Shown here piece after piece: positions 4,772-50,988 of a DNA stretch of 50,988 bases. Both the position numbers and the translations under genes were made by a program. How positions within the stretch are numbered: the first letter of the stretch is position 1; the number at the start of each line of letters is the position of its first letter. The notes below the pieces were generated by a model. The model was not told the origin of the DNA and did not search any database. It saw only the letters and a program-made list of their open reading frames with translations. This stretch comes from a virus (lineage: Duplodnaviria; Caudoviricetes): positions 1-50,988 of IMG/VR virus record IMGVR_UViG_3300037261_000025; one strand, written 5' to 3'.

Positions 4772-5581
4772 ATGAACCTAACTCAACACCCTCTTAGCGG
4801 CGCATTCCCGTCAATGAACGATGCGGATTTTCTGGCGCTGAAAGACGACATAGAAAACAACGGGCAACGCGAGCCAGTCATTGTTTTAGACGGAATGGTG
4901 CTCGATGGATGGCACCGGTTTCAGGCGTGCACACAACTCGGAATGGCTGTGAAAAAGTTCACGTTCGATCCGAGCGACGATCCTGTTGCGTTCGTTCTGA
5001 GCCAGAACATGCACCGGCGCCACTTGACCGCTTCGCAGCGTGCCGCCGCCGTTGTCGCATGCTCAAATTGGTCGCCTCCACATCGTCAAAAGAAGTCCGC
5101 ACCTGGTGCGGACTTATCAAAAACAACGAAGGAACTTGCCATTATTGCGGGCACTGGGACTCGAACTATCGAGCATGCGAAAGCGGCTGAAAAGGCCGGT
5201 CTCGGAGATTTGGTGAAAGAAGGCGTAATGACCGCAAAAGAGGGAGCAAAAGTTGCATCTGGGAAGATAGATGAAAAGCCCTCAAAAGTTCTGCCAAAAC
5301 CGGAAGTCGCTTTCATAGAACACGATCAGGATAAGGTGCAGATTCTCAGCGAAGAGAATGACCGCCTGAACGACCGATTGGCTGTAGTGGCGATGGATGC
5401 CACACCAGAAGAGCGCAGCGCGGCCAAGGACACGATCGCAAGCCTTCGCGCAGAACTCAAGACCATGGGTATTGAACTGGCTGCAGTCAAGGCGTCTCGA
5501 GATAGCTTGATGATGGAGACAAACGAACTTAAAAAGCAATGTGCAAGCCAACGAAAACAGATCGAAAAGTTGACGAAATAA
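4772..5581 (+). CDS. ParB/Srx-like N-terminal domain protein with HTH and C-terminal coiled coil
   Basis: HP....FP.M..ADF.AL..DI..NGQREP...G.VLDGWHRFQAC; SQNMHRRHLTASQRA. Confidence 0.8.
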   Translation: MNLTQHPLSGAFPSMNDADFLALKDDIENNGQREPVIVLDGMVLDGWHRFQACTQLGMAVKKFTFDPSDDPVAFVLSQNMHRRHLTASQRAAAVVACSNWSPPHRQKKSAPGADLSKTTKELAIIAGTGTRTIEHAKAAEKAGLGDLVKEGVMTAKEGAKVASGKIDEKPSKVLPKPEVAFIEHDQDKVQILSEENDRLNDRLAVVAMDATPEERSAAKDTIASLRAELKTMGIELAAVKASRDSLMMETNELKKQCASQRKQIEKLTK

Positions 5582-8600: not shown

Positions 8601-8975
8601 AAAGAAAAATCCGACAAAGAAAAGGAAGCGGCAAAGTGCCCTCGATGTCATGCGCTATGGGTCGGAAAGTCCGACAACTGCGTTGCATGCGGGTATGCCA
8701 GGCCGTTCACCAGCTTGATCGAAGCCGTACCGGGTGAGATGGAAGAACTCAAGGGTGCTCCGACGAAGGATGTGAAGCAGTCATGGTATTCGCAGCTTCG
8801 CACGCTTGCGGAGAACAGAGGATATTCGAATGGCTGGGTCGCGCACAAGTACCGTACCCGTTTTGGGGTGTGGCCCAAGGGCTTGCAGGAGGTTGCGCTG
8901 CCAGTTAGCATCGAGGTCGCACGATGGGAAACAAGCCAAAGAATTGCATGGGCTAAAGGTAAGAAATCAGTATGA
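5625..8975 (+). CDS. SF2 DEAD/DEAH helicase (RadD/YejH-like) containing two inteins; ~491 aa after splicing
   Basis: APTGAGK|T, IVDE|CH, GLSASP, LTKGFD, QQMGRVMR, C-terminal CxxC..CxxC and GW.AHKY...FG.WP. Confidence 0.92.
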   Translation: MSEVVLFEDQKEVLDKVRSAFIEGHRSVMLYAPTGAGKCLGRDTPVMMADGTIKPVQDIIAGEFLMGDDGDPRCVMSTATGREMLYRVTPRKGDSYVVNASHLLSLRVTPGSNGILLADGMHIKRGEDVVSVRADVFARSNRTAKHCLKGWRSDAIQAFMREDDGEDRLMPSYILGAWLGDGTLGHASITKPRSRMVDEWVAYGRSIGYGVSIDECDGRCPTWLLTNGSDGYAFNIAQSSLGVIGVLQRKHIPDAYKYGPLSDRLQLLAGLIDSDGSESNGGCDWISKSEELARDFAFVCRSVGLACYLTYEKKGIKSTGFVGWYWRASVSGDLSIIPTRDKIFPERRQIKRHLVHGITVEPMGEGDYFGFEIDGNRLFLLGDFTVTHNTEMAISMLKATSDKYKRGAMMLDRIVLCNQTSARLQKYNIDHGVMQSGHWRNRPYERIQVCSAQTLEKRGSFPGLDLLIVDECFPGETLIDTIDGARRIDTLNDGGLIYNAIGTGTVRSIFSKTVFQTLLVRMSNGDSFECTEDHPVFTDLGWQPAGAMARGTKLFRGENLRSLWRGDSTACHKLENGGSDTGSGNIIQCAEMLREILRQEIEQPDAQAGIAYENEGYASPNWAQAIGARRQWEGHDGDRDAYVEQVAGGVGSRPHFQDVEKCGSGVSASLQIGSCVSYPKALSGVGWRESSLDCSASAGREEGCAAKRVWVESVQTQEHPSGRTVFNLRVSGHPSYFANGYLVHNCHTQRQQTTEFIRSNESIKVIGLSASPFADGLGKTYTKVVSATTTAKLVDQKRLVPLRVFIAKEIDMAGAKKVAGEWSQGEAAERGMKITGDVVAEWVKKTTEIFGGPRKTIVFCSNVAHGADLANKFSDAGYNFVAISYKDSDEFKVDAVADFSKPDTAIHGLIACDILTKGFDVPDVMIGVSARPFTKSFMSHVQQMGRVMRSYPEKEFAIWLDHSGNYLRFQEDWDELYHEGVHELSDGKEKAKKEKSDKEKEAAKCPRCHALWVGKSDNCVACGYARPFTSLIEAVPGEMEELKGAPTKDVKQSWYSQLRTLAENRGYSNGWVAHKYRTRFGVWPKGLQEVALPVSIEVARWETSQRIAWAKGKKSV
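5739..6791 (+). mobile_element. Intein 1 (351 aa) with LAGLIDADG homing endonuclease, inserted in Walker A
   Basis: GK|CLGRDT...VNASHLLS...GDFTVTHN|T; ILGAWLGDG and LLAGLIDSDG motifs. Confidence 0.95.
7038..7859 (+). mobile_element. Intein 2 (274 aa) inserted in Walker B (DE|CH)
   Basis: DE|CFPGETLI...ECTEDHPVFT...VFNLRVSGHPSYFANGYLVHN|C; no in-frame endonuclease motifs. Confidence 0.93.
7195..7851 (+). CDS. DUF559/Vsr-like (PD-(D/E)xK) endonuclease overprinted in the +1 frame inside intein 2
   Basis: AAGGA RBS 6 nt before ATG; CEVC...CCGKSC, NPMHKPE.R.KM, YKLDLA...LELDGGSH...DAKKDALL...GWKVCRL. Confidence 0.8.
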   Translation: MATHLNAQRIIPCSLTWDGNPLAPWRGVRSYFAVKTCEVCGEEIRPLVINSKTEGVIPEAETLFNARKCCGKSCAKKLSNPMHKPELRMKMKDTLLRIGHKPLVRGGNGKGMTETETLMLSKLPVGWGPGHIFKTLRSAAQGYPHHYKLDLAFPIQRLCLELDGGSHRSIARQAQDAKKDALLREFGWKVCRLKNTQAVELFSTCESVDTLRILQMAT

Positions 8976-10551: not shown

Positions 10552-10569
10552 ATTACCACTTTTATTGCA

Positions 10570-10753
10570 CTTGAGTGGTGGGACATAGTTTAACCGCAGC
10601 ACTCAAGGAAGATCCCCTACTGTGAGGACAGACAAGGAAGAAGGGGTAAGGGTGGCGAAGGCAGCGCCCGATTGTCGAACGGCTACCGGGTCATGTAACG
10701 GCGAGAGGCATACATGTGAAGGACTTGGACCCAAGGATGGGCTAGGTCCGTCC
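10570..10753 (+). other. Multi-hairpin intergenic element (candidate structured RNA or replication origin)
   Basis: Consecutive stems cttgagtg/cactcaag, cccct/agggg, gggtg/cgccc, catgta/tacatg, ggatgggc/gtccgtcc. Confidence 0.45.
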
Positions 10754-10786
10754 AGCTCAAGGCATTTAGAAGTTAAGGGGAAGTTA

Positions 10787-11065
10787 ATGCAGTCTGGTGG
10801 AGATTGGGAAGAATTCGAGATTCAGAGATTTCTTCGGAGAAACGATAGATTTTTGAATGAGGGTTTACCCGAATTGCAGTCAGAAGCACTTGCGCAGACA
10901 ATGCTTTATCGTGACCGAGATGGCTCTGGCGATGACCGGCGAATTTGCATTGAGTGCAAGCATATCAAAGGATCATTGTGCAGGCATCCGAAATTAAAAA
11001 TTGTGAGCCCAGTGAGATTTATTCTGAAGCGGTGCGACGGATTTGAATTGATAGGCCAAAAATGA
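10787..11065 (+). CDS. Hypothetical Cys-rich protein
   Basis: AAGGGG RBS; RDR..DDRR.C.EC.H....C...RC.GF. Confidence 0.7.
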   Translation: MQSGGDWEEFEIQRFLRRNDRFLNEGLPELQSEALAQTMLYRDRDGSGDDRRICIECKHIKGSLCRHPKLKIVSPVRFILKRCDGFELIGQK

Positions 11066-11068
11066 AAA

Positions 11069-11227
11069 ATGGAATCAGTGAAAAAAGCGCACATCGCGCA
11101 CCTGATCCGGCTGCGTCAGGCGGACCCGGAATATGCCCGATACGCGCTCGCACAGACGCTGGCGATGGACATATGGCCGGACCTGGAAGAGTGCGTGCTG
11201 AGGGCTTGGAATGATCGAGAGAAGTAA
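11069..11227 (+). CDS. Hypothetical protein, 52 aa (not in the ORF track)
   Basis: MESVKKAHIAHLIRLRQADPEYARYAL...; its TAA lies in the R' box of attC-1. Confidence 0.65.
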   Translation: MESVKKAHIAHLIRLRQADPEYARYALAQTLAMDIWPDLEECVLRAWNDREK

Positions 11228-11293
11228 CGCCAAAAATCAGGGGGACTCCGGCGGCTTTATCGCCGGAGGCTCCCCTGGATTGCCGGGTTAGCC
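11222..11293 (-). other. attC-1 integron recombination site (72 bp)
   Basis: Minus strand: GGCTAAC-ccggc-AATCCAGG...CCTGATT-tttggc-GTTACTT; 5/6-nt spacers, extra C in L'', long imperfect hairpin. Confidence 0.85.
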
Positions 11294-11780
11294 CCGGCGC
11301 AACTACGGAGACGAACATGGAGCGATTGAAATACCCAATGAGCCATGAATGGCACGTTGCGATCAACCGGCACCACGACGGAAAGATGGGAACGCCCGAT
11401 TGGAAGCGCTGGATGTACGAAGCGAAAGCGATGGCCGACGAAGTGCCGCGCATGGCACTGGTGCTCGGCAGGGAGCGGCGCGGAGAACTCGCCAAGACGC
11501 ATAAGCAATGCTCGATGAATCCGGCGGTGCCGGTGCCAAGCAACCACCTGACGTGCTGCCTCGGCGTGAAGTGCGCGGAGTGCCCGGAACTGCTGGCGAT
11601 CGACAAGATTGAGCGGGTAACGCCCGAAGACATTGACACGGCGAAGGCATGGACGTGCGCGGCGCACATTGTTTCCAAGGGCGGCGACACGATGAACGAA
11701 GGCTACCTGCTCGACGTGAGCGACCGGATGTACTGGGACAACGTGTGCGAGAGCCTGAGCCAAGGTGATGAAGGGGCTAA
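11228..11780 (-). mobile_element. Gene cassette A (553 bp), gene inverted relative to attC
   Basis: Ends complementary over 9 nt (GTTAGCCCC 11287-11295 / GGGGCTAAC 11773-11781). Confidence 0.82.
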
Positions 11781-11787
11781 CGCTTGA
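11317..11787 (+). CDS. Cassette A cargo: Cys/His-rich hypothetical protein
   Basis: GGAG RBS; TCCLG.KC.ECP, WTC..H; stop codon lies inside attC-2. Confidence 0.8.
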   Translation: MERLKYPMSHEWHVAINRHHDGKMGTPDWKRWMYEAKAMADEVPRMALVLGRERRGELAKTHKQCSMNPAVPVPSNHLTCCLGVKCAECPELLAIDKIERVTPEDIDTAKAWTCAAHIVSKGGDTMNEGYLLDVSDRMYWDNVCESLSQGDEGANA

Positions 11788-11862
11788 ATTCAGCGACCGC
11801 GCTGAAAAATAAACTACAGCGTGCCACGCTTCGGCGCGGTTCGCTGGAATGACGGGTTAGCC
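11775..11862 (-). other. attC-2 integron recombination site (88 bp)
   Basis: Minus strand: GGCTAAC-ccgtc-ATTCCAGC-gaaccgcgc...gcgcggtc-GCTGAAT-tcaagc-GTTAGCC; extra C and extra A as in canonical attC. Confidence 0.9.
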
Positions 11863-12091
11863 GCTGCCCGCGAAACAGCGCGCAACACTTGGAGAACGTG
11901 AAATGAACTACTGTGAAGCCCTCGGCAAAATACGTGAAGCGCGAGCATTATTGCAAGACGAAGCTGCAACCCCGGCAAACACGCGGGAACTGGCTATGGC
12001 AATAACAAAGCTCGACGAAGCGATCCTCTGGCGGCAAAGCGACATGCAGAAAAAAGCGCCGGTCGTGGATGGCTGCTCCATAGGCGGCTAA
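11781..12091 (-). mobile_element. Gene cassette B (311 bp), gene inverted relative to attC
   Basis: Ends complementary over 9 nt (GTTAGCCGC 11856-11864 / GCGGCTAAC 12084-12092). Confidence 0.82.
11903..12091 (+). CDS. Cassette B cargo: Acb2/Tad1-like helical-hairpin protein (putative cyclic-nucleotide sponge)
   Basis: GGAG RBS; RELAMAITKLDEAILW resembles the RE..A.T.(L/V)EEA.(M/L)W pattern of Tad1-like proteins. Confidence 0.6.
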   Translation: MNYCEALGKIREARALLQDEAATPANTRELAMAITKLDEAILWRQSDMQKKAPVVDGCSIGG

Positions 12092-12142
12092 CGCAATGTC
12101 TAGCGCAACTGCGACATAACGTCGCCACGGCCAAGTTATAGA
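12089..12142 (-). other. attI-like cassette receptor site 1
   Basis: GTT crossover without an attC hairpin; gapless homology to 46503-46556. Confidence 0.65.
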
Positions 12143-12160
12143 TCAACTGGAGAATTTGAA

Positions 12161-12820
12161 ATGACCAAAGACATGATCGAACGCCTGCGCGATGGGTACG
12201 TATCGCGGGCCAAGCGATGGTCTGGTGATACCCACTCAGGGCTCGAAGGTGGCGAGGTTGACGTAGCAGCTACGGAATACCTGATGAAAGCAGCCGCCGA
12301 CGAACTCGAAGCCTCTGCCAAGCGCGAAGTGGCGCTGGCGGCTAGGGTTGCGGAGTTGGAACGTGAGTGCTATGCAACAACTAACACCATTGGACGCAAG
12401 GAAGTTGCCATCTTCACAAAGAAACACCACTCTACCTCGCAGCAGGAGCAAAACATGAGTAACGAAAAAGTGCTGATTGATCGGGCGCTGGTGGAGCAGG
12501 CAGTTGCGAGCATTTACGTAGCGTTTGGTGATTGCGCGCTGCTTAGAGGATTTAACGCCGAACTCGCTGCCAGTCCTGCTGCAACCAACGCCTTCAACCC
12601 AGAAGCCGAACGCACTGCTGCGTACAACGTCATTGCCGCTAGGGACAGACACATCGCAGAGCTTGAAGCCGAACTCGCGGCGGTCAGGAGTCAGGAGCCA
12701 ATTGGCTACGTCAGTGAAAACGATTGGAGTTGTGCATATCTGCATCATGACAATACACCAGGAAATCCCGTGTACGCAGCAGGCGGGGCACAGGAGAAGA
12801 AGTCACGCCCTCCGCTGTGA
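12161..12820 (+). CDS. Hypothetical protein (ead/ea22-like coiled-coil segments; possible internal start at 12455)
   Basis: GGAG RBS; ARVAELE and HIAELEAELAA..QEPIGYV; second CAGGAG-ATG at 12455. Confidence 0.65.
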   Translation: MTKDMIERLRDGYVSRAKRWSGDTHSGLEGGEVDVAATEYLMKAAADELEASAKREVALAARVAELERECYATTNTIGRKEVAIFTKKHHSTSQQEQNMSNEKVLIDRALVEQAVASIYVAFGDCALLRGFNAELAASPAATNAFNPEAERTAAYNVIAARDRHIAELEAELAAVRSQEPIGYVSENDWSCAYLHHDNTPGNPVYAAGGAQEKKSRPPL

Positions 12821-13015
12821 TTTCCTACGCTCAACTTCAAAATGGAGCGTCATTCTCCGCCGTTTCTCGTGATTCTCCACGGCAACTCTGATTCCGAGCG
12901 CCATGTTCCCGTCCCCTATTCGACGGGCATGGTAGGCGTGCCAAGCGCTAAGTCTCACTGAGAACGCATCCATTGCATCCATGTGTCGCTTCCTCCGTTC
13001 TTCTTGAATATCCAT
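12803..13015 (-). CDS. Hypothetical protein, 70 aa
   Basis: CAGGAGG RBS before MDIQEERRKRH. Confidence 0.65.
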   Translation of the reverse strand: MDIQEERRKRHMDAMDAFSVRLSAWHAYHARRIGDGNMALGIRVAVENHEKRRRMTLHFEVERRKSQRRA

Positions 13016-13123
13016 GGTGACCTCCTGTAATACAGGCTTGTAGCACGTATCGATGACTTCTGATGTACGGTAGCGCACACTGAATATGCCGCCGATTTGT
13101 GCGGTCATTTCAAAGGAATCATC

Positions 13124-13816
13124 ATGGCAGACATCGTTACCGGCACCGTCACGGGCCAACTTGACACTACTGCACTCTTGCAAGCTGACGCTGACATTCG
13201 TCGTGAAGCTGCAATCTACACCGCCGACATCCGGCGCGAAACCGCTAAAGAAGCTTCGGACCTGACCGACACTGTGAAAACCGCAGGATGGGCAAACAGC
13301 GACCGCACCGGCACCGAAGCGGATCGCATCGTGGCGCAGGATACGGCGTATTTCATTGCGAATCAGTCGCAGACTTTCGCTAACGCGACCGCTCTGGCTG
13401 CTCTCAAAGCTGGTACCGACATGTCGTTCGCAAACACCATGGCGGCTATCGCTGCGTCGGCTCAAGCGGGCCAAGCCGCTACCGCCCTTGAAGGTGCCAA
13501 GAATGCTGCCGCTACGGCCCTGGGTCAAGCGCTGCTTACGCAGGCAGTTATGGGCGATGGGGCGACTACCCGCGCACTCATCAACACGCTGAAGATGGAA
13601 GACCTGAACCGCTCCTTGACCGAGCGCCATGCGGAGATCGTCGAACAACGTGGCGATGCTCGTCGCTATCAGGACGGGTTCAACAACAGTCAGGTGAACG
13701 CGCTGTCTTCGCAGATCAATGCGCTTCATAGCCAGTTCCAGCAAGCAACCCAAAAGACCGTGAACTTCGGTACCATGGGAGCGGCTACCACTTCCAACGC
13801 TAACAACGTGGCGTAA
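13124..13816 (+). CDS. Ala/Thr-rich coiled-coil hypothetical protein
   Basis: AAGGA RBS; MADIVTGTVTG...; codon usage looks like a highly expressed gene. Confidence 0.8.
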   Translation: MADIVTGTVTGQLDTTALLQADADIRREAAIYTADIRRETAKEASDLTDTVKTAGWANSDRTGTEADRIVAQDTAYFIANQSQTFANATALAALKAGTDMSFANTMAAIAASAQAGQAATALEGAKNAAATALGQALLTQAVMGDGATTRALINTLKMEDLNRSLTERHAEIVEQRGDARRYQDGFNNSQVNALSSQINALHSQFQQATQKTVNFGTMGAATTSNANNVA

Positions 13817-45738: not shown

Positions 45739-46197
45739 TCACCCAATTTCCCCAGTTTCTGGGTCTGTTACCCACTGCGCGGATTCCCGAAGCTCCACGC
45801 CGTTTTGCGCTGCCCACGCCATCACGTATTCAACCAGGCTTGAAAGACGCGCCTTGCTCATCCTGGCCGTACTCTCGCGAATGTTTACCGCCTCATTCTC
45901 AAGGCCAGGCACAAACTCTGCGCCCTCTCGCGTAGCCACGGAATGGGCCGAAACGAACAAAACTTTCCATTCCGTGGCGCTGCGCTTCTTACCCATCCAT
46001 TCGGCCTGTGCGGCCACGTCGGCAAAAAGCGCGTGCAGCAGCCGGTTTTGCGCGCTGGATCGCGTCTCCTTGCGGATTTCGAGTGTCAGGCGGTTCCGGG
46101 CCATGAGCATGGATTTCGCCCACTCCCACGCGAGCTTGATGACTTGCCAAGCCTGCACCGGCTCCCACAAACGGGCAGTGAACTTTTCTTCGGTCAC
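45739..46197 (-). CDS. ninB: NinB-family recombination protein
   Basis: RS..QN.LLHA...DVA.Q..W.G......WK..F...PGL.G..V....ST..MS. Confidence 0.88.
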   Translation of the reverse strand: MTEEKFTARLWEPVQAWQVIKLAWEWAKSMLMARNRLTLEIRKETRSSAQNRLLHALFADVAAQAEWMGKKRSATEWKVLFVSAHSVATREGAEFVPGLENEAVNIRESTARMSKARLSSLVEYVMAWAAQNGVELRESAQWVTDPETGEIG

Positions 46198-46484
46198 GGT
46201 ATACCCCTCAGCACTTTCAGCGACCGCAGCGCCGCATCAACTGAATCGACCATCGCCACGGGCAATCCCTTTGCTTCTTCGGCCTGCTTCGCGTTCATGC
46301 CTTTTCGGCCATAGCCTGTTTTCGCATTTTTTACCTCAAAATACATACACACCTCCGATTCGTTTGTTGCCCATACTTGCAGGTCATAGGGCTGGTGAAC
46401 CACCTTTACCCGTGCGCCAGCCTTTCGGAGTGCTTCAACGATGGTTTTTTGGTTTCCGTCAACCCTGCGGGCGTATCGTGTCAT
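46194..46484 (-). CDS. PD-(D/E)xK nuclease (VRR-NUC or resolvase-like)
   Basis: RVD.NQ..IV.ALR..GA.V...DL....EVK. Confidence 0.75.
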   Translation of the reverse strand: MTRYARRVDGNQKTIVEALRKAGARVKVVHQPYDLQVWATNESEVCMYFEVKNAKTGYGRKGMNAKQAEEAKGLPVAMVDSVDAALRSLKVLRGIP

Positions 46485-46499
46485 TTTTATTTTTCCATT

Positions 46500-46556
46500 C
46501 GCTCTATAACGTCTCCACAGACAAGTTATAGAGCGGTTGCGGTTTATATTGCGTTA
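46500..46556 (+). other. attI-like cassette receptor site 2
   Basis: cgctctataac-N14-gttatagagcg then GTTGCG...attgcG|TT; homologous to 12089-12142. Confidence 0.65.
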
Positions 46557-46976
46557 TGTGCGTTCCCACAGAATCGAGTTCCGTCCAAGCTGCACGGCCT
46601 TGGCGCATTGCACCTCGTCAAACTCGCCTATATGGGCTTCTCCCTTCCCGAGATTCATCAATACCGCGAGGTGTGAATACACCTCGTGTCTGCGTAGTCG
46701 GCCTTCGCGCCAGTAAGGGTCAATGGCCGCGTGTGCCGCTTGCTTCGCCGTTCTCAGTTGCGCGTTTGCCAGCCTACCGAGTGGTCTGGTGCCGTCGCCG
46801 TAGCCGTTGCCTGCTTTGTGGCATCCAACGTAAGCACCACATGGCACACAGCGCCAAAACCTCAAGGCTTCAAGGTCTGGGCGGTGCGGGTAAATGTCTG
46901 CGCCCGTTGCCAGTACCGCAGGCGTTCCGCAGTAGTGGCACATAACAGGTCGCTCAATCTGATTCACTTCGTTCAC
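46554..46976 (-). CDS. Cassette C cargo: zinc-finger protein (DUF3268-like)
   Basis: C.YCG...IYPHR.DL...C..C.AYVGCH...PLG.LAN..LR..K..AH...DP.W...HIG.FD...C. Confidence 0.8.
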   Translation of the reverse strand: MNEVNQIERPVMCHYCGTPAVLATGADIYPHRPDLEALRFWRCVPCGAYVGCHKAGNGYGDGTRPLGRLANAQLRTAKQAAHAAIDPYWREGRLRRHEVYSHLAVLMNLGKGEAHIGEFDEVQCAKAVQLGRNSILWERT

Positions 46977-46991
46977 AGCTTATCTCCAGCG
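46554..46991 (+). mobile_element. Gene cassette C (438 bp), gene inverted relative to attC
   Basis: GTTATGTGC 46553-46561 complementary to GCACATAAC 46938-46946. Confidence 0.75.
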
Positions 46992-46997
46992 TTAGAT
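46940..46997 (+). other. attC-3 (58 bp, partly degenerate)
   Basis: ACATAAC-aggtc-GCTCAATC-tgattcacttcgttcaca-GCTTATC-tccagc-GTTAGAT; two L-box mismatches. Confidence 0.7.
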
Positions 46998-47007
46998 CGC
47001 ATAATCT

Positions 47008-47346
47008 TCATGCCAAAATACAAATTCCCGCCAGCAGCACAATGCACACAGCGAAAGTCCCGATAGTCCAAGCTGAGTCTTTCCAGTGCCATGCTGTGTC
47101 CTCGTCCAACTCGTCATCCATCGTGATAGGCATCGGTGATTCGTCGCGGGTTGTAAGGTTTTGCTCCAGCTTCCAATGCTTTGATAGCTCTACACAAAGT
47201 TTCTGGCCAATCGGAGTTAGCGTATGCATCATGGGTGGCCTTGGCGCTTGCGTGCTGGATGCGTACTCTTCATCCGCGCAGCAGGTGCAGTCGCGGCCTT
47301 GCCGACAATTTCCTAGACATGGGCTATTAAACATGGGTTCTTCCAA
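47008..47346 (-). CDS. Hypothetical protein with C-terminal TM
   Basis: C.GNC.QGR.C; C-terminal hydrophobic helix; start uncertain. Confidence 0.6.
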   Translation of the reverse strand: MEEPMFNSPCLGNCRQGRDCTCCADEEYASSTQAPRPPMMHTLTPIGQKLCVELSKHWKLEQNLTTRDESPMPITMDDELDEDTAWHWKDSAWTIGTFAVCIVLLAGICILA

Positions 47347-47399
47347 TGGTTGGCGCGCAGCAGCGGGGTCTAGGGTGCTGCGCGTTGGTCCCGAAAAAA

Positions 47400-49118
47400 T
47401 TAGGCGGCCTGTTTGATCTGGATAGCCTGGATATGAGACACGAGGCGCATGCAGATCATCGGGAAGTCGCTCTCTCGAAAGAGCTTCGCGTTGCGCTCAG
47501 TGGTCGCATCGAATCCCAGGTTCGATAGGAATTCGGCGGAAAGCGAAAAGCCAAGGCGCTCTGCGATCTGTCCTAGTTTCAGAGTCGGAGCGGATTGCGT
47601 CATCGCTTTTGCAACCGGTGTCGGCATGATTGCAACCACTTCGGCGAACGTCACAGCGCTGGCTACAGACTGCGCTGGCGCTGGTGTCGGTACTACCACG
47701 GCTTGGGCCGCTGTAATCGCATCCTGGACCTTCTTTTCGGCATCGGCCCGCGCCGCCGTCTCACGCTCGATCTTCGCAAGCTCTTCGGCACGGATCGCGG
47801 CGCGCTGGGCTTCTTCTTTGCGCTGCACCTCGGCCTGGTGCTCGGCGATGCGCGACTTCACCAGCATGTTCAGGTCATCAGGTGCCTTCTGCACGATCGT
47901 TCCGGTATCGGCGAACAAGAACGCGTGATCCTTCGCCAGCTCACGCAGCGTGCCGAGATTGATCTGGATTTTGTCGGCCACGGCATTGGCTTCGATCTTG
48001 CAGCGCGCCAGCTCAGTGGCCACTTTGTCGCGCATGCTGTCGATACTTTTCAAGCCCTTGACCACGGTCTGAAACTCGGTCTGAATAGTAGGCAAGTATG
48101 GTTTTCCAAGGCGCTCGTTCAGGCCGCGCATGTGCGTGATAAATTCCGCTGAAGCGTCTCCGATGATCTTGGTGCGGCGGTTTTCCTTTTCCACCTTGAC
48201 GAGCTTTTCCACCAGCAGCCGGTTGGTGCGCGCCGTCTCGCGGTACAGGCCCACGGTGCGGCGCATGCTGTCGATACTCTCGGTCTGAGCCAGAGCGCCG
48301 TTCTCGGCTGCGTCCAGCGCTTCCTCGGCGGTCTTGAGCGTCTTCACCGTTGCTTCGAGGTCCGCGAAGTCTTGATCGGTTTCTGGCGTCTTGTTGATTC
48401 GGTTGACGTAGGCCGTCAGTGCCGTGCCGAAGGCTTCTAGGTTGTCCACAAGAGCGATAGAACCGTTGACTTGTATCGAGACGGAAGGCAGCGACATTTG
48501 CGGCTTGGAGACTGGAGCCAGAACGACTTCGGCGGGAATGTAGGCGGCTAGGTCTTTGGCGAATTGATGCCAGCCTGCAATCAGCGCATCGCGGCGTTCT
48601 GGTCGAGACTGATACCAGACACCACGGGTGTTTTCTTCGGTGCCGTCCGATGTGGTGAAGTACGCCTCAGATCCACCGCACACTAGTATCTGTTGTTCAA
48701 GTTGCCAATAGTAATGCGGCTCAAGTTCGCCAGAATTTATGGCCTCGACAAGCAATGCGTTCCATAGCTTATTTTCCCACGGCCTGGATTCGTCCATCGT
48801 CAGGCCGTCAAAGCTCGCCAGAAGCGGCAGTCCATTGATGTTCAATGTTCCTGTGCATGGATATAGTTCTTCGCCGAAATATTTTTCGACGATTGGACGG
48901 GCGGCAGCTTCGGCGGCGTGGCCAGCGTAGAACAAGCGCTGTTTCGCTGGGTCGATTTCCGCATCAACGATACGCTCTGCCTTTGCTTTCAGCAGGGCGG
49001 ACCGTGTTTGATATTTACTCACTCCCATCATGGCCGGTGCTTCGCTGGCCGTGAAGTGGTCTGCGCGGATTGCCATCCACTTGGCGCTTCCTTGATGTAC
49101 GTTGCTCAATGTTTCCAT
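47400..49118 (-). CDS. YqaJ-like (lambda Exo family) exonuclease with long coiled-coil extension
   Basis: QGS..W..IR...TASEA..MMG.S.Y, GH..E, ASFDG, WENK, YYWQ..QQ. Confidence 0.88.
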   Translation of the reverse strand: METLSNVHQGSAKWMAIRADHFTASEAPAMMGVSKYQTRSALLKAKAERIVDAEIDPAKQRLFYAGHAAEAAARPIVEKYFGEELYPCTGTLNINGLPLLASFDGLTMDESRPWENKLWNALLVEAINSGELEPHYYWQLEQQILVCGGSEAYFTTSDGTEENTRGVWYQSRPERRDALIAGWHQFAKDLAAYIPAEVVLAPVSKPQMSLPSVSIQVNGSIALVDNLEAFGTALTAYVNRINKTPETDQDFADLEATVKTLKTAEEALDAAENGALAQTESIDSMRRTVGLYRETARTNRLLVEKLVKVEKENRRTKIIGDASAEFITHMRGLNERLGKPYLPTIQTEFQTVVKGLKSIDSMRDKVATELARCKIEANAVADKIQINLGTLRELAKDHAFLFADTGTIVQKAPDDLNMLVKSRIAEHQAEVQRKEEAQRAAIRAEELAKIERETAARADAEKKVQDAITAAQAVVVPTPAPAQSVASAVTFAEVVAIMPTPVAKAMTQSAPTLKLGQIAERLGFSLSAEFLSNLGFDATTERNAKLFRESDFPMICMRLVSHIQAIQIKQAA

Positions 49119-49120
49119 TT

Positions 49121-49876
49121 TCAAGACTCCATATCGATTGTTGATTCACTGGCCCGAACCATGGCGATCTGTTCTTCGCTCATGATGGCTTTGCTTGACA
49201 CCATGGCGATGATCTGTTCAGCACTCTTTCGTCCTGAATTGATCAGTCCGCGCCAGATGCAGAGATTCTTTTGGAACGCTTCATCGGAGTAGTTTGGAAG
49301 TGCTGCCGTCGCTGCGAGCTTCGCGATGATCTCGCCGGTCGATGGGTCGATGGTCTTTGACGGCGCGGTATTCTCAATAATCCGCTCGGCTTCGTCAACG
49401 TCATAGATTCCGCCAAAACCAAACGCGATACGAGCGCACTGAATCATTGCTTTGTGGCGCAGCATTCGGTATGGGTGACTATCCCAAGGCTTCACTCCTG
49501 GTCGCCTGCATTCGGCCATCCACTCCGTTAGCTTTGTCGGGTGAGTACGGTCTTTACGGTAGATCGTGCAGGTGCATGAATCGGCGGTTTGCTCAAAATC
49601 CATTCCATCAAATTGAGGGTTTGTGTTAATGATTCGACTCCATCCGTCAACTCCAACAACCGGGACGATGCCGCCTTTGTCCGGAAACGCATAAATTTCC
49701 TTGGTCCAAGGGTTCAGCTTGTATTGCCCGGCGACGATTAGCAGTGCGGACAACTGAGCGTCTGTCACATCTCCCTTGAAGGCAGTTGACTTGAGTACCT
49801 GATAAAGCTCTTCGCTCTTTGGAAGATCAAAACGAGTAGCAAGCTCGTTGATCTGTGTGGTGATTAGATTGCTCAT
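49121..49876 (-). CDS. bet: Red-beta (Bet) single-strand annealing protein
   Basis: QY.LNPWTKEIYAFPDKGGIVPVVGVDGW.RIIN, HP.RMLRHKA.IQCAR.AFGF.GIYD.DEAERI. Confidence 0.92.
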   Translation of the reverse strand: MSNLITTQINELATRFDLPKSEELYQVLKSTAFKGDVTDAQLSALLIVAGQYKLNPWTKEIYAFPDKGGIVPVVGVDGWSRIINTNPQFDGMDFEQTADSCTCTIYRKDRTHPTKLTEWMAECRRPGVKPWDSHPYRMLRHKAMIQCARIAFGFGGIYDVDEAERIIENTAPSKTIDPSTGEIIAKLAATAALPNYSDEAFQKNLCIWRGLINSGRKSAEQIIAMVSSKAIMSEEQIAMVRASESTIDMES

Positions 49877-50014
49877 AATTTCCTCGTTGGTTAAAGTGTT
49901 CTTGCTAGTGTTTCCACCAACACTTTGAGAATAGGTTTCAGGAGAAGAGTTCGTCCTGATTCGTATGGATGGTTGAGAATCAAACAGCCAATATTTGAAG
50001 TATCAACCATGATT

Positions 50015-50242: not shown

Positions 50243-50490
50243 TTCGCGCTCACCGTCGCTACGGCTCCGAGCCCGGTGTGCATCTGGCATGAGATCGTCT
50301 GATCGTCCAGCCACTTCGCATACGCACCAGGTCCGCAGATTTCCTGTGCCGCCATCTGCTTGCGGCGCTCGGACATTTGCTGGCGCTGTGCATCGCCGGT
50401 GAAGTCAACATTGTCATCCAGGTGGAACGACAGGCCGAGTATCAGCGCCAGAAGTGCGGCGGCGAGCCAGTTGAATTTTGTTTGGTTCAT
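50239..50490 (-). CDS. Small membrane-anchored protein
   Basis: N-terminal TM; CGP.A...W; ATGA overlaps. Confidence 0.7.
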   Translation of the reverse strand: MNQTKFNWLAAALLALILGLSFHLDDNVDFTGDAQRQQMSERRKQMAAQEICGPGAYAKWLDDQTISCQMHTGLGAVATVSAK

Positions 50491-50714
50491 GCGAACACTC
50501 CCACAAGCGGCCCAGGCATGCCATGGTCACGACCGCCGAACTTCGCATCGACGTAGCTATACCAGATCGCGCCGTTTTTATCGACCTCTGCCTGCAGTTT
50601 ATGCAACTCGCGCAGCTCGTCACGTCCAGCACGATAGACAGTGTTGTCGTCGCTGAACTCGAATTTCCAGTCCATGCTCTCAAGTGCTTTTTGATATTGC
50701 TCTCGTGTAGTCAT
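50487..50714 (-). CDS. Hypothetical protein
   Basis: GGAG RBS; L...DW.FEFSDD..VY..G. Confidence 0.7.
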   Translation of the reverse strand: MTTREQYQKALESMDWKFEFSDDNTVYRAGRDELRELHKLQAEVDKNGAIWYSYVDAKFGGRDHGMPGPLVGVFA

Positions 50715-50716
50715 GT

Positions 50717-50988
50717 TTACTCCGAAATCAAGTCGCTGATGGCGATTACTGAAGAGCGTTCTTCGTCTGTTATTTCGCAATCATCAATGTCGCCGCGCAC
50801 GCCGGTCAGGTCGCCGCGCACGCCGGTCAGGTCGCCGCGCACGCCGGTCAGGTCGCCGCTCACGCCGGTCAGGTTGCCGCTCACGTTGCTCAGGTCGCCG
50901 CGCACGCCGGTCAGGTCGCCGCGCACGCCGGTCAGGTCGCCGCTCACGCCGGTCAGGTTGCCGCTCACGTTGCTCAGGTCGCCGCGCA
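50717..50988 (-). CDS. Heptapeptide-repeat protein, 3' part (joins 240..1)
   Basis: GDLTGVR/GNLTGVS repeats, then DDCEITDEERSSVIAISDLISE*. Confidence 0.85.
   Translation of the reverse strand, partial: RGDLSNVSGNLTGVSGDLTGVRGDLTGVRGDLSNVSGNLTGVSGDLTGVRGDLTGVRGDLTGVRGDIDDCEITDEERSSVIAISDLISE
50789..50988 (-). repeat. 21-nt coding tandem repeat (continuation of 1-171)
   Basis: Same unit as at the window start. Confidence 0.95.

Follow-up and report, generated by a model that had tools for sequence, protein, structure and literature searches.

Results

Two 69-nt intergenic spacers of a phage genome are paralogous

We analyzed a virus genome (Duplodnaviria; Caudoviricetes), IMG/VR virus record IMGVR_UViG_3300037261_000025, which is graded complete and which we took at its whole length of 50,988 nt, called the window below. 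We focused on two intergenic spacers, about 34 kb apart, that carry two copies (E1 at site 1 and E2 at site 2) of one element, each next to predicted gene cassettes of the integron type, and on the tentative reading that the element is a docking site for an integron integrase. The two copies and the open reading frames (ORFs) that follow them are:

12089 to 12165, plus strand: E1, consisting of the stop codon of a 62-aa ORF, the spacer 12092-12160 (69 nt), and the start of a 219-aa ORF
46480 to 46556, minus strand: E2, consisting of the stop codon of a DUF3268 ORF, the spacer 46485-46553 (69 nt), and the start of a 96-aa ORF
12161 to 12820, plus strand: 219-aa ORF, starting 19 nt past the E1 hairpin; no family match
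46194 to 46484, minus strand: 96-aa ORF, starting 19 nt past the E2 hairpin, with NinB next; unrelated to the 219-aa ORF

The original prediction had aligned 12089-12142 without gaps to the reverse complement of 46503-46556. The coordinates proved correct, and 37/54 positions are identical, made up of 24/32, 5/14 in a central spacer, and 8/8. The similarity is longer than first noted, with 53/77 identical positions in an ungapped alignment of 12089-12165 to 46556-46480, from the upstream TAA to the downstream ATGAC, and the intergenic spacers at the two sites have exactly the same length of 69 nt.

A chance resemblance could be suspected from the 24/32 block alone, as the window holds other 30-nt inverted matches that are just as good (for example I3, 32 nt, 75%). 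The 77-mer as a whole, however, reached a best local score of 29 elsewhere in the window, whereas 150 dinucleotide shuffles gave a mean of 14.0 (sd 1.3) and a maximum of 17, with 0/150 reaching 29, a result that already refutes chance. Both copies also have the same placement relative to stop and start codons, and we consider the probability of a chance similarity negligible. Within the window, an nhmmer search found these two copies and no others. The proteins flanking the two elements are unrelated, so the pair does not reflect a gene duplication. We conclude that the two sites are genuine paralogues.

Cassettes bounded by predicted attC sites abut both copies

On the other side of each element from the ORFs listed above, we found predicted attC sites, cassette genes, and the points at which cassette and element are joined. 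Joining points are written G/TT, with the slash between the two joined bases:

12091 to 12092, minus strand: joining point of site 1, G(12092)/TT(12091-12090), where the paralogy with site 2 begins
46553 to 46554, plus strand: joining point of site 2, G(46553)/TT(46554-46555)
11775 to 11862, minus strand: attC1, 88 nt (model R2, 55.6 bits, E 7.5e-11; fold z -6.0)
11221 to 11293, minus strand: attC2, 73 nt (R2, 44.3 bits, E 3.4e-8)
46940 to 46997, plus strand: attC3, 58 nt, weaker (R2, 31.0 bits, E 4.5e-5; cruder model R1, 12.5 bits, E 0.32)
11903 to 12091, plus strand: cassette ORF of 62 aa, antisense to the attC top strand; 23 homologues besides itself
11317 to 11787, plus strand: cassette ORF of 156 aa, antisense to the attC top strand; widespread family, no Pfam domain
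46554 to 46976, minus strand: DUF3268 zinc-finger ORF, listed from a GTG, with the ATG at 46944 the likelier start; cassette between E2 and attC3

The attC sites were called with two covariance models. The first, R1, revealed canonical attC arrays in the relatives of the phage, and the second, R2, was built from 37 R1 hits in these relatives, with no window sequence in its training set. Over both strands of the window (102 kb), R2 reported exactly three sites at E<0.01, which are attC1, attC2, and attC3. As a positive control, R2 recovered both attCs of a class 1 integron on the gene-sense strand (56.7 and 30.7 bits), and the attC polarity call is therefore sound; this comparator is plasmid-borne and was reached through a weak BLAST match. 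In a scan for pairs of core boxes, 11775-11862 ranked first of 528 candidates. One 7-mer core is present six times in the genome, and four of these copies fall within 11287-12092, on alternating strands. The arms of attC1 match those of the attC of the aacA34 cassette of the class 1 integron at 23/26 and 18/24 positions, with two extra bases on the same arm. A joint alignment of the two with a consensus fold gave an R stem, an unpaired spacer, and an L stem with bulged bases, and we checked this anatomy against the outline in Nivina et al. (2016). In gene sense, the third site, attC3, is found just upstream of the ATG at 46944 that probably starts DUF3268; it is the weakest link of the attC evidence. 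Judged by these model matches, attC1, attC2, and attC3 are real, canonical attC sites that bound three cassettes.

The G/TT joins fall at 11228/11227, 11781/11780, and 12092/12091 on the minus strand and at 46553/46554 and 46991/46992 on the plus strand. The boxes that flank the 156-aa, 62-aa, and DUF3268 genes are exact reverse complements of each other, at 7/7 positions each. At site 2, the 7-mer at the join and the first box of attC3 are exact reverse complements, and the match extends to 9/9. In the arrays of the relatives, 20 of 22 neighboring attC box pairs are complementary at 6/7 positions or better. Complementary boxes thus surround each gene, as cassette logic requires.

The original prediction held that each site starts exactly at a cassette crossover and proposed a search for adjacent attC cassettes. 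Both ideas held up: attC-bounded cassettes abut both sites, and the sequence that the sites share begins at 12092 and 46553, at G/TT, with the preceding TAA owned by the cassette. The evidence for a start at the crossover is strong at site 1, and at site 2 it depends on attC3 (31.0 bits, E=4.5e-5, with no significant fold). G12092/TT precedes the cassette closed by attC1, and G46553/TT precedes the cassette closed by attC3. With the attC top strand as reference, each array has its element copy at the head, which is the position of an attI. With two attCs 482 nt apart at locus 1, one at locus 2, and no integrase, the surroundings agree with the definitions of two or more clustered attC sites that have no integron integrase (CALIN) and of a single attC site lacking an integron integrase (SALIN).

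Homology of the DUF3268 gene with relatives also ends at the joining point, since its match to record G001, at 90% identity, is confined to 46553-46947. Near-identical contigs were present in three peat-metagenome runs from three studies (X1, X2, and X3); no RNA run was among those listed. The join at site 2 is bridged by X1 only, which may be the source of the record; the contigs of X2 and X3 have fewer than 31 letters on the element side and so do not confirm the join independently. Contig 16 of X3 matches 46545-47414 and then, 9 nt past the join, continues with 12 different letters that are GC-rich and palindromic. One possibility is that this contig comes from a variant with another, perhaps attC-like, stretch behind the DUF3268 cassette, the first 9 nt past the join being shared.

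Cassette genes run antisense to the attC top strand

Of the cassette genes in the window, 3/3 have this antisense polarity, whereas the genes of the class 1 integron control are sense to the top strand. DUF3268 is a Pfam family, and the 156-aa and 62-aa ORFs are backed by homologues, on the plus strand. The 156-aa ORF has 475 homologous proteins at E<=0.001, and its protein was absent from the phage and plasmid collections searched. The 62-aa ORF gave a weak match to the Acb2/Tad1 hairpin domain (E 1.4e-4, 22.4 bits, under the Pfam cut-off of 27). This Pfam domain is present in one of its 23 homologues, and by sequence the 62-aa ORF may be a relative of anti-defense sponges.

The relatives show the same polarity. 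On the RecE strand, the ORFs tiling their arrays encode, among others, a D12 adenine methyltransferase, a PAPS-reductase-domain protein, and a second methyltransferase, and opposite-strand ORFs of these arrays gave no matches. Three Pfam-supported ORFs define antisense cassette regions:

L193, 8571 to 9443: antisense cassette region
L151, 8289 to 9365: antisense cassette region
L151, 10156 to 10770: antisense cassette region

The element contains a hairpin module with an inverted spacer

Within each copy lies a hairpin module of two inverted arms around a 14-nt spacer:

12116 to 12139: hairpin module of site 1, with 5-bp arms 12116-12120 and 12135-12139 and spacer 12121-12134; pairing at 7/11 extended arm positions, fold not significant
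46500 to 46535: hairpin module of site 2, with perfect 11-bp arms 46500-46510 and 46525-46535 and spacer 46511-46524, which holds an inner 4-bp stem

The original prediction that the spacers match only if one is inverted was confirmed, with 5/14 identical positions in direct orientation and 11/14 when inverted (binomial P(>=11/14) 4e-5). With the spacer inverted, the identity of the elements rises to 59/77. On the plus strand, the modules of the two sites form a 27-nt direct repeat (family D19, 89% identical). The spacer is mostly an inner palindrome, offset by 2 nt, and by our reading of the letters the flip call rests on about six asymmetric positions, a 4-nt centre and a 2-nt bulge.

As RNA or single-stranded DNA (ssDNA), site 2 forms a strong 11 + 4 bp hairpin (z -5.0 to -3.9). 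The fold of site 1 is not significant, with z -0.03 to -1.5 as RNA or ssDNA and z -0.5 and -0.6 as ssDNA alone. The earlier proposal of an additional module for binding or recombination in the ATAAC-N14-GTTAT palindrome found no evidence here. The palindrome forms a strong hairpin at site 2 only.

We suggest that the spacer flip could be a by-product of replication template switching between the short inverted arms of the module, in which the arms at site 2 would have been perfected. As described in the abstract of PMC8604942, template switching at short inverted repeats inverts the spacer and homogenizes the arms. The likeness is that one such event does both, and here the spacer is inverted and the arms pair at 11/11 positions at site 2 vs 7/11 at site 1, which matches the template-switch outcome. 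The difference is that the abstracts of PMC8604942 and PMC8794818 deal with yeast genes and RNA hairpins, with no phage or integron context, and that the event here is inferred from two copies. On this analysis, the flip would need no recombinase. A Hin/Gin-type invertase switch was rejected, as PF00239 and PF00589 are absent from the window. A 14-nt segment is also far too short for synapsis in an inversion of the invertase type.

The unequal folds bear on the idea that the two copies control the two divergent early operons at the RNA level, in the manner of lambda nutL/nutR or HK022 put sites. One copy lies in each divergent arm, oriented with transcription, and a linear motif is followed by a hairpin, as such sites would have it. 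The RNA hairpin, however, has z -5.0 at site 2 and z -0.03 at site 1, and the loop is reverse-complemented between the copies, so the two RNAs differ. The sites match no Rfam family and lie 3.8 and 12.6 kb from the divergent control region. An RNA element common to both copies is excluded by the unequal folds, and we regard a nut- or put-like role as highly improbable.

Other roles were tried and rejected. There is no sigma-70-like promoter or intrinsic terminator in 12089-12165 or 46480-46556. Rfam scans, by gathering score and by E-value, were empty at both sites, which eliminates a known RNA family. A host repeat of the repetitive extragenic palindromic (REP) type was dismissed because the hairpin pattern had 0 matches in genome contigs and viral contigs.

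The element is a putative docking site for a host integrase

Neither element copy is an attC, given the lack of a model match and of a significant fold at site 1. E1 and E2 have no full-length match to R1 or R2, and their bare hairpin arms score 11.4 and 10.0 bits with R2 (E 1.8 and 3.8). AAC- and GTT-type boxes occur at both element ends, and at site 2 the inner box pairs with the terminal one.

The reading that we prefer, with confidence somewhat short of even, is that at each site a small integron cassette array of an integrase-less phage ends in a piece that is not an attC, and that the spacer is a target of the attI-like type or of the attG type. The name attG refers to non-classical genomic sites of cassette insertion, which carry G(A/T)T at the cleavage point and are recombined as duplex, as outlined in the preprint 10.1101/2022.09.11.507474. 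The spacer would be, or would once have been, a double-stranded target of the attI-like or "attG hotspot" type, at which a host integron integrase joined cassettes twice, separately, at the same base of the two copies. Matches to tyrosine and serine recombinases were absent from the window (0 for PF00589 in six frames and for PF00239, with positive controls in 14 and 13 of 14 genomes). Because the phage has no recombinase, the host integrase would have to act in trans. One of the joining events may be a recombination between an attC and the element that inverted about 34 kb. As G/TT is antisense to phage transcription, cassettes would enter with their attC top strand antisense, and only those with a gene running the other way would be expressed and kept. 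The fixed strand of G/TT, together with selection for expression, would account for the polarity being inverted in all three cassettes. The hairpin arms resemble R boxes. On the strength of the sequence, we consider the docking role of the element plausible and treat it as putative.

The original prediction had called the sites dedicated docking sites rather than random secondary insertions. The second half of this claim stood, as the use of one and the same base for the join in both paralogous copies speaks against random secondary insertion. The word dedicated fared less well, because there is no intI in cis, which is a defining feature of attI, and because no homologue of the element was found at other arrays or genomes in any search made. 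These two results weigh against the docking site, as do several others. Both element ends are attC-like, one with an inverse-core-type box and the other with GCG before G/TT. The element is 56-57 nt long, inside the 50-124 nt range of the attCs of the relatives, and this attC-like length makes a scrambled attC plausible. Selection favors survivors inserted right behind a stop codon, so that hitting the same base twice is less improbable and loses some of its weight as an argument. The breakpoint of the X3 contig, if real, is not at G/TT, and attC3 alone folds non-significantly (z +0.65 and +0.49). Finally, the homologue of the DUF3268 gene in G001 and that of the 96-aa gene in L214 stand in ordinary overlapping-gene contexts without attC or element.

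The expectation that the element would recur beyond this phage was not borne out. It was not found in 94 related loci (917,689 nt) scanned by profile and by consensus, and a single match of the hairpin regular expression, in L171, is at chance level. A combined degenerate pattern had 0 matches in viral, genome, and metagenome collections, and a pattern anchored at the 3' end of DUF3268 had 0 matches in metagenomes. The module-A pattern matched at least 115 stretches of viral contigs, about the chance expectation by our own estimate, and the hairpin was in none of the 115 loci retrieved. Pattern and profile scans thus found no second lineage with the element, the exact patterns demanding about 20 conserved bases and being blind to copies diverged like E1 and E2, and the collections excluding near-identical records.

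The main rival to a docking site, and a serious one that we nevertheless find doubtful, is that the copies are decayed attCs of the arrays' own family, with an interior that was scrambled and then duplicated, G/TT joins that were inherited, and no present function. Scrambling, for example by template switching, could have built the hairpin from an R-box and its flank. In gene sense, the element fills an attC slot: its first box overlaps the stop codon and a GTTAT-type box lies 19 nt before the ATG, and attC1 and attC2 are likewise placed 40 nt and 23 nt before the next ATG. Such boxes are present in the attCs of the relatives, where lengths of 50-57 nt are common, and both attC models pick the hairpin arms as bare R boxes. 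The loose end of the X3 contig beyond 46545 is GC-rich and palindromic, and relics near 8608 and 10478 in the closest relative, L133, open with the same 8-9 letters (by eye, not significant). A decayed attC would fit poorly, however, with the missing full-length model match in array orientation, with the lack of L-box pairing, and with the non-significant fold at site 1. The copies stay similar for another 19-24 nt, into the ribosome-binding region and start codon, unlike homologous attCs of unrelated cassettes. The far ends of the 219-aa and 96-aa genes are without a complementary box, as the expected 7-mer occurs once in the window, and a dead attC could not be copied by an integrase.

The extent of the duplicated unit, exactly stop to start, 69 nt twice, with the ribosome-binding region included, raises another explanation: the element could be an ordinary phage leader (5' untranslated region, hairpin, and ribosome-binding site), present twice for reasons of regulation or of mosaic recombination, next to which cassettes landed as non-specific attG-type insertions at GWT. 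An integrase needs only GWT, according to the outline in 10.1101/2022.09.11.507474, with the duplex recombined. A TAA stop followed by C gives GTT on the opposite strand, only insertions directly behind a stop codon would survive selection, and both loci are mosaic junctions compared with the relatives. On the other hand, with only two copies and about 22 intergenic gaps of at least 35 nt, two joins at the homologous base are unlikely without target preference. Neither site has a sigma-70-like promoter or an intrinsic terminator, and the hairpin structure is not conserved between the copies. The right-hand CRGM hotspot motif of E. coli attG, which is known for IntI1 only, is by our reading missing from the reconstructed target of site 1. 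We consider the leader explanation unlikely.

Relatives carry attC arrays and suggest a large inversion in the window

attC matches at E<=0.001 were present in 10 of 80 loci related through RecE. These loci, and the segments that we compared with the closest relative, are:

L133, L135, L147, L148, L151, L157, L162, L191, L193, and L206: RecE-relative loci with attCs
Window 12850 to 13462 and 47509 to 49889, against L133 13175 to 13782 and 5255 to 7682: segments of the inversion comparison

The attCs downstream of RecE in the relatives are all on the strand opposite RecE, mostly 1-5 kb away, and the arrays hold up to 9 canonical attCs (for example L157 8879-12317 and L162 8788-12103). At the same threshold, no attC was found in 9 DUF3268 loci or in L213 and L214. 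A tyrosine recombinase (PF00589) was found in 0/5 attC-bearing related phage records, one of which has terminal repeats.

In L133, the Bet-RecE segment (76-83% nucleotide identity) and the homologue of 12850-13462 (69%) are co-oriented, with attCs between them, whereas in the window these blocks are on opposite strands. In L213, a primase is followed by a homologue of 10622-11065 and then by NinB, and in L214 a helicase/methyltransferase homologue is followed by the 96-aa homologue on one strand, which links NinB and the 96-aa gene to genes of the replication arm. This comparison suggests that the window differs from its relatives by an inversion of about 34 kb, with breakpoints at or beside the two elements. 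The breakpoints would be either the two elements, by homologous exchange, or attC2 and E2, by integrase-type recombination at G/TT. Breakpoints at attC2 and E2 would restore a single array downstream of RecE, as in the relatives, and a lambda-like layout.

A further reading of the element, which we think improbable to a similar degree as the leader, is that it is a phage-borne attI without an integrase. With the element as a dedicated landing pad, a lambdoid-like clade of environmental phages would borrow a host integrase to shuffle cassettes of inverted polarity, and recombination of an attC with copy 2 of the element would have inverted the 34 kb or so. If this were true, accessory and anti-defense genes would have been captured as a cassette pool adapted to phage transcription, and the inversion would have taken the late genes out of the replication arm and put them into the recombination arm.

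In L133, gene ends near 8608, 10072, and 10478 carry short hairpins whose first 8-9 letters are nearly those of the element, with one core box missing. By eye they look like truncated attC relics, and their local alignment scores of 11-14 are at background.

Genome layout of the phage

A plus-strand frame that leaves the right end of the window resumes in frame at the left end, and identical 21-nt repeats lie at both ends, so we read the map as circularly permuted. Three adjacent ORFs consist of tandem repeats of 21, 18, and 15 nt (1-234, 409-1897, and 50478-50988), one of them spanning the record ends, and the break in the assembly probably fell within a repeat, the genome being circularly permuted. 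The genes form two divergent arms that start near 50.3-50.5 kb and meet at 14.11 kb. The plus arm holds three tandem-repeat proteins, a helicase/methyltransferase, a ParB-like protein, a 1124-aa helicase, an HNH endonuclease, a primase, and small ORFs. The minus arm carries Bet, a RecE-like exonuclease, the DUF3268 zinc-finger protein, the 96-aa ORF, NinB, and HNH, and also terminase, portal-region, head, ejection, and tail genes and a spanin. Among cultured phages, we found no DNA match to the window, and identity of the large terminase was at most 26%.

The genome has a ParB-like gene at 4772-5581, yet no integrase of any kind, and it may belong to a lytic phage or to one that is maintained as a plasmid prophage. 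Directly after the primase gene, at 10568-10691 on the plus strand, lies a full-length match to the Rfam Betaproteobacteria-1 RNA (87 bits vs a gathering score of 49.4), which hints at a betaproteobacterial host; for the ORF that overlaps this match, the homologue covers residues 59-145 only. The 276-nt "gap" after the 219-aa ORF (12821-13096) is 69% conserved with L133 and seems to contain a small minus-strand ORF divergent from a 239-aa gene, which may have its own control region.

Discussion

The comparison with attI, for which attI1 is the paradigm, gives likenesses and differences. Like an attI, the element heads its array on the attC top strand and is joined to the first cassette at G/TT, it is a duplex-type site with no folded attC hairpin, and several short GTT-containing repeats, here 11-12 nt apart, lie upstream of the join. 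The box scheme of attI1 is L, R, DR1, and DR2, and the attI1 in locus L215 has four GTTA-containing boxes. Unlike an attI, the element has no intI nearby or anywhere in the phage and is present in two copies in one genome. It has no sequence similarity to attI1, in which the palindromic module is absent.

The features of an attG are found here as well, with G/TT at both joins, no integrase, and attCs present. As in the attG insertions outlined in 10.1101/2022.09.11.507474, cassettes lie outside an integron with no integrase nearby, and the outcome is a SALIN or a small CALIN. By that account, attG sites are numerous, weakly specific, and in the bacterial chromosome, whereas here the same base of two paralogues was used, in a phage. 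The bases beyond the attC2 join do not match the CRGM at +6 to +9 of the E. coli hotspot of IntI1, and other integrases may differ. The authors suggest in the same source that attI sites may have evolved from attG hotspots. The element would be attI-like in place and use, and by definition closest to an attG hotspot.

Phage CALINs have been described by Qi et al. (2023, PMC9892861), who reported 17 integrase-less attC clusters; at CALIN boundaries, the main account notes inverted GTTRRRY-like motifs, once with a hairpin terminator, that were proposed to aid incorporation. Those clusters resemble ours in lacking an integrase and in having methyltransferase genes among the cassettes, as in the relatives here. 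They differ in that the account, supplementary tables aside, describes no homologous boundary elements at two loci, and in that its main text mentions neither a systematic antisense polarity nor arrays at a fixed position downstream of recombination genes. Arrays of attC sites in phages and cassette insertion at non-classical genomic sites are thus already published. Paired homologous non-attC end-pieces in one phage, the antisense cassette polarity, and the link to a large inversion appear new.

Integrons serve bacteria as devices for gene capture, and it is only recently that attC clusters were reported from phages. If the elements are dead attC relics, our finding shrinks to another phage CALIN and a neat example of template-switch inversion. 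The two sites also mark or adjoin the breakpoints of the probable large inversion relative to the closest relative, which would tie integron-type recombination to phage genome architecture. The antisense cassette polarity, in the window and in the relatives, would point to a separate, phage-adapted cassette pool. The methyltransferase and PAPS-reductase-domain genes of the relatives and the Acb2/Tad1-like gene here suggest a role in accessory-gene swapping, which would give the phage modular exchange of early accessory genes. If this phage keeps docking sites for a host integrase, phages would be active users of the cassette pool and not accidental carriers.

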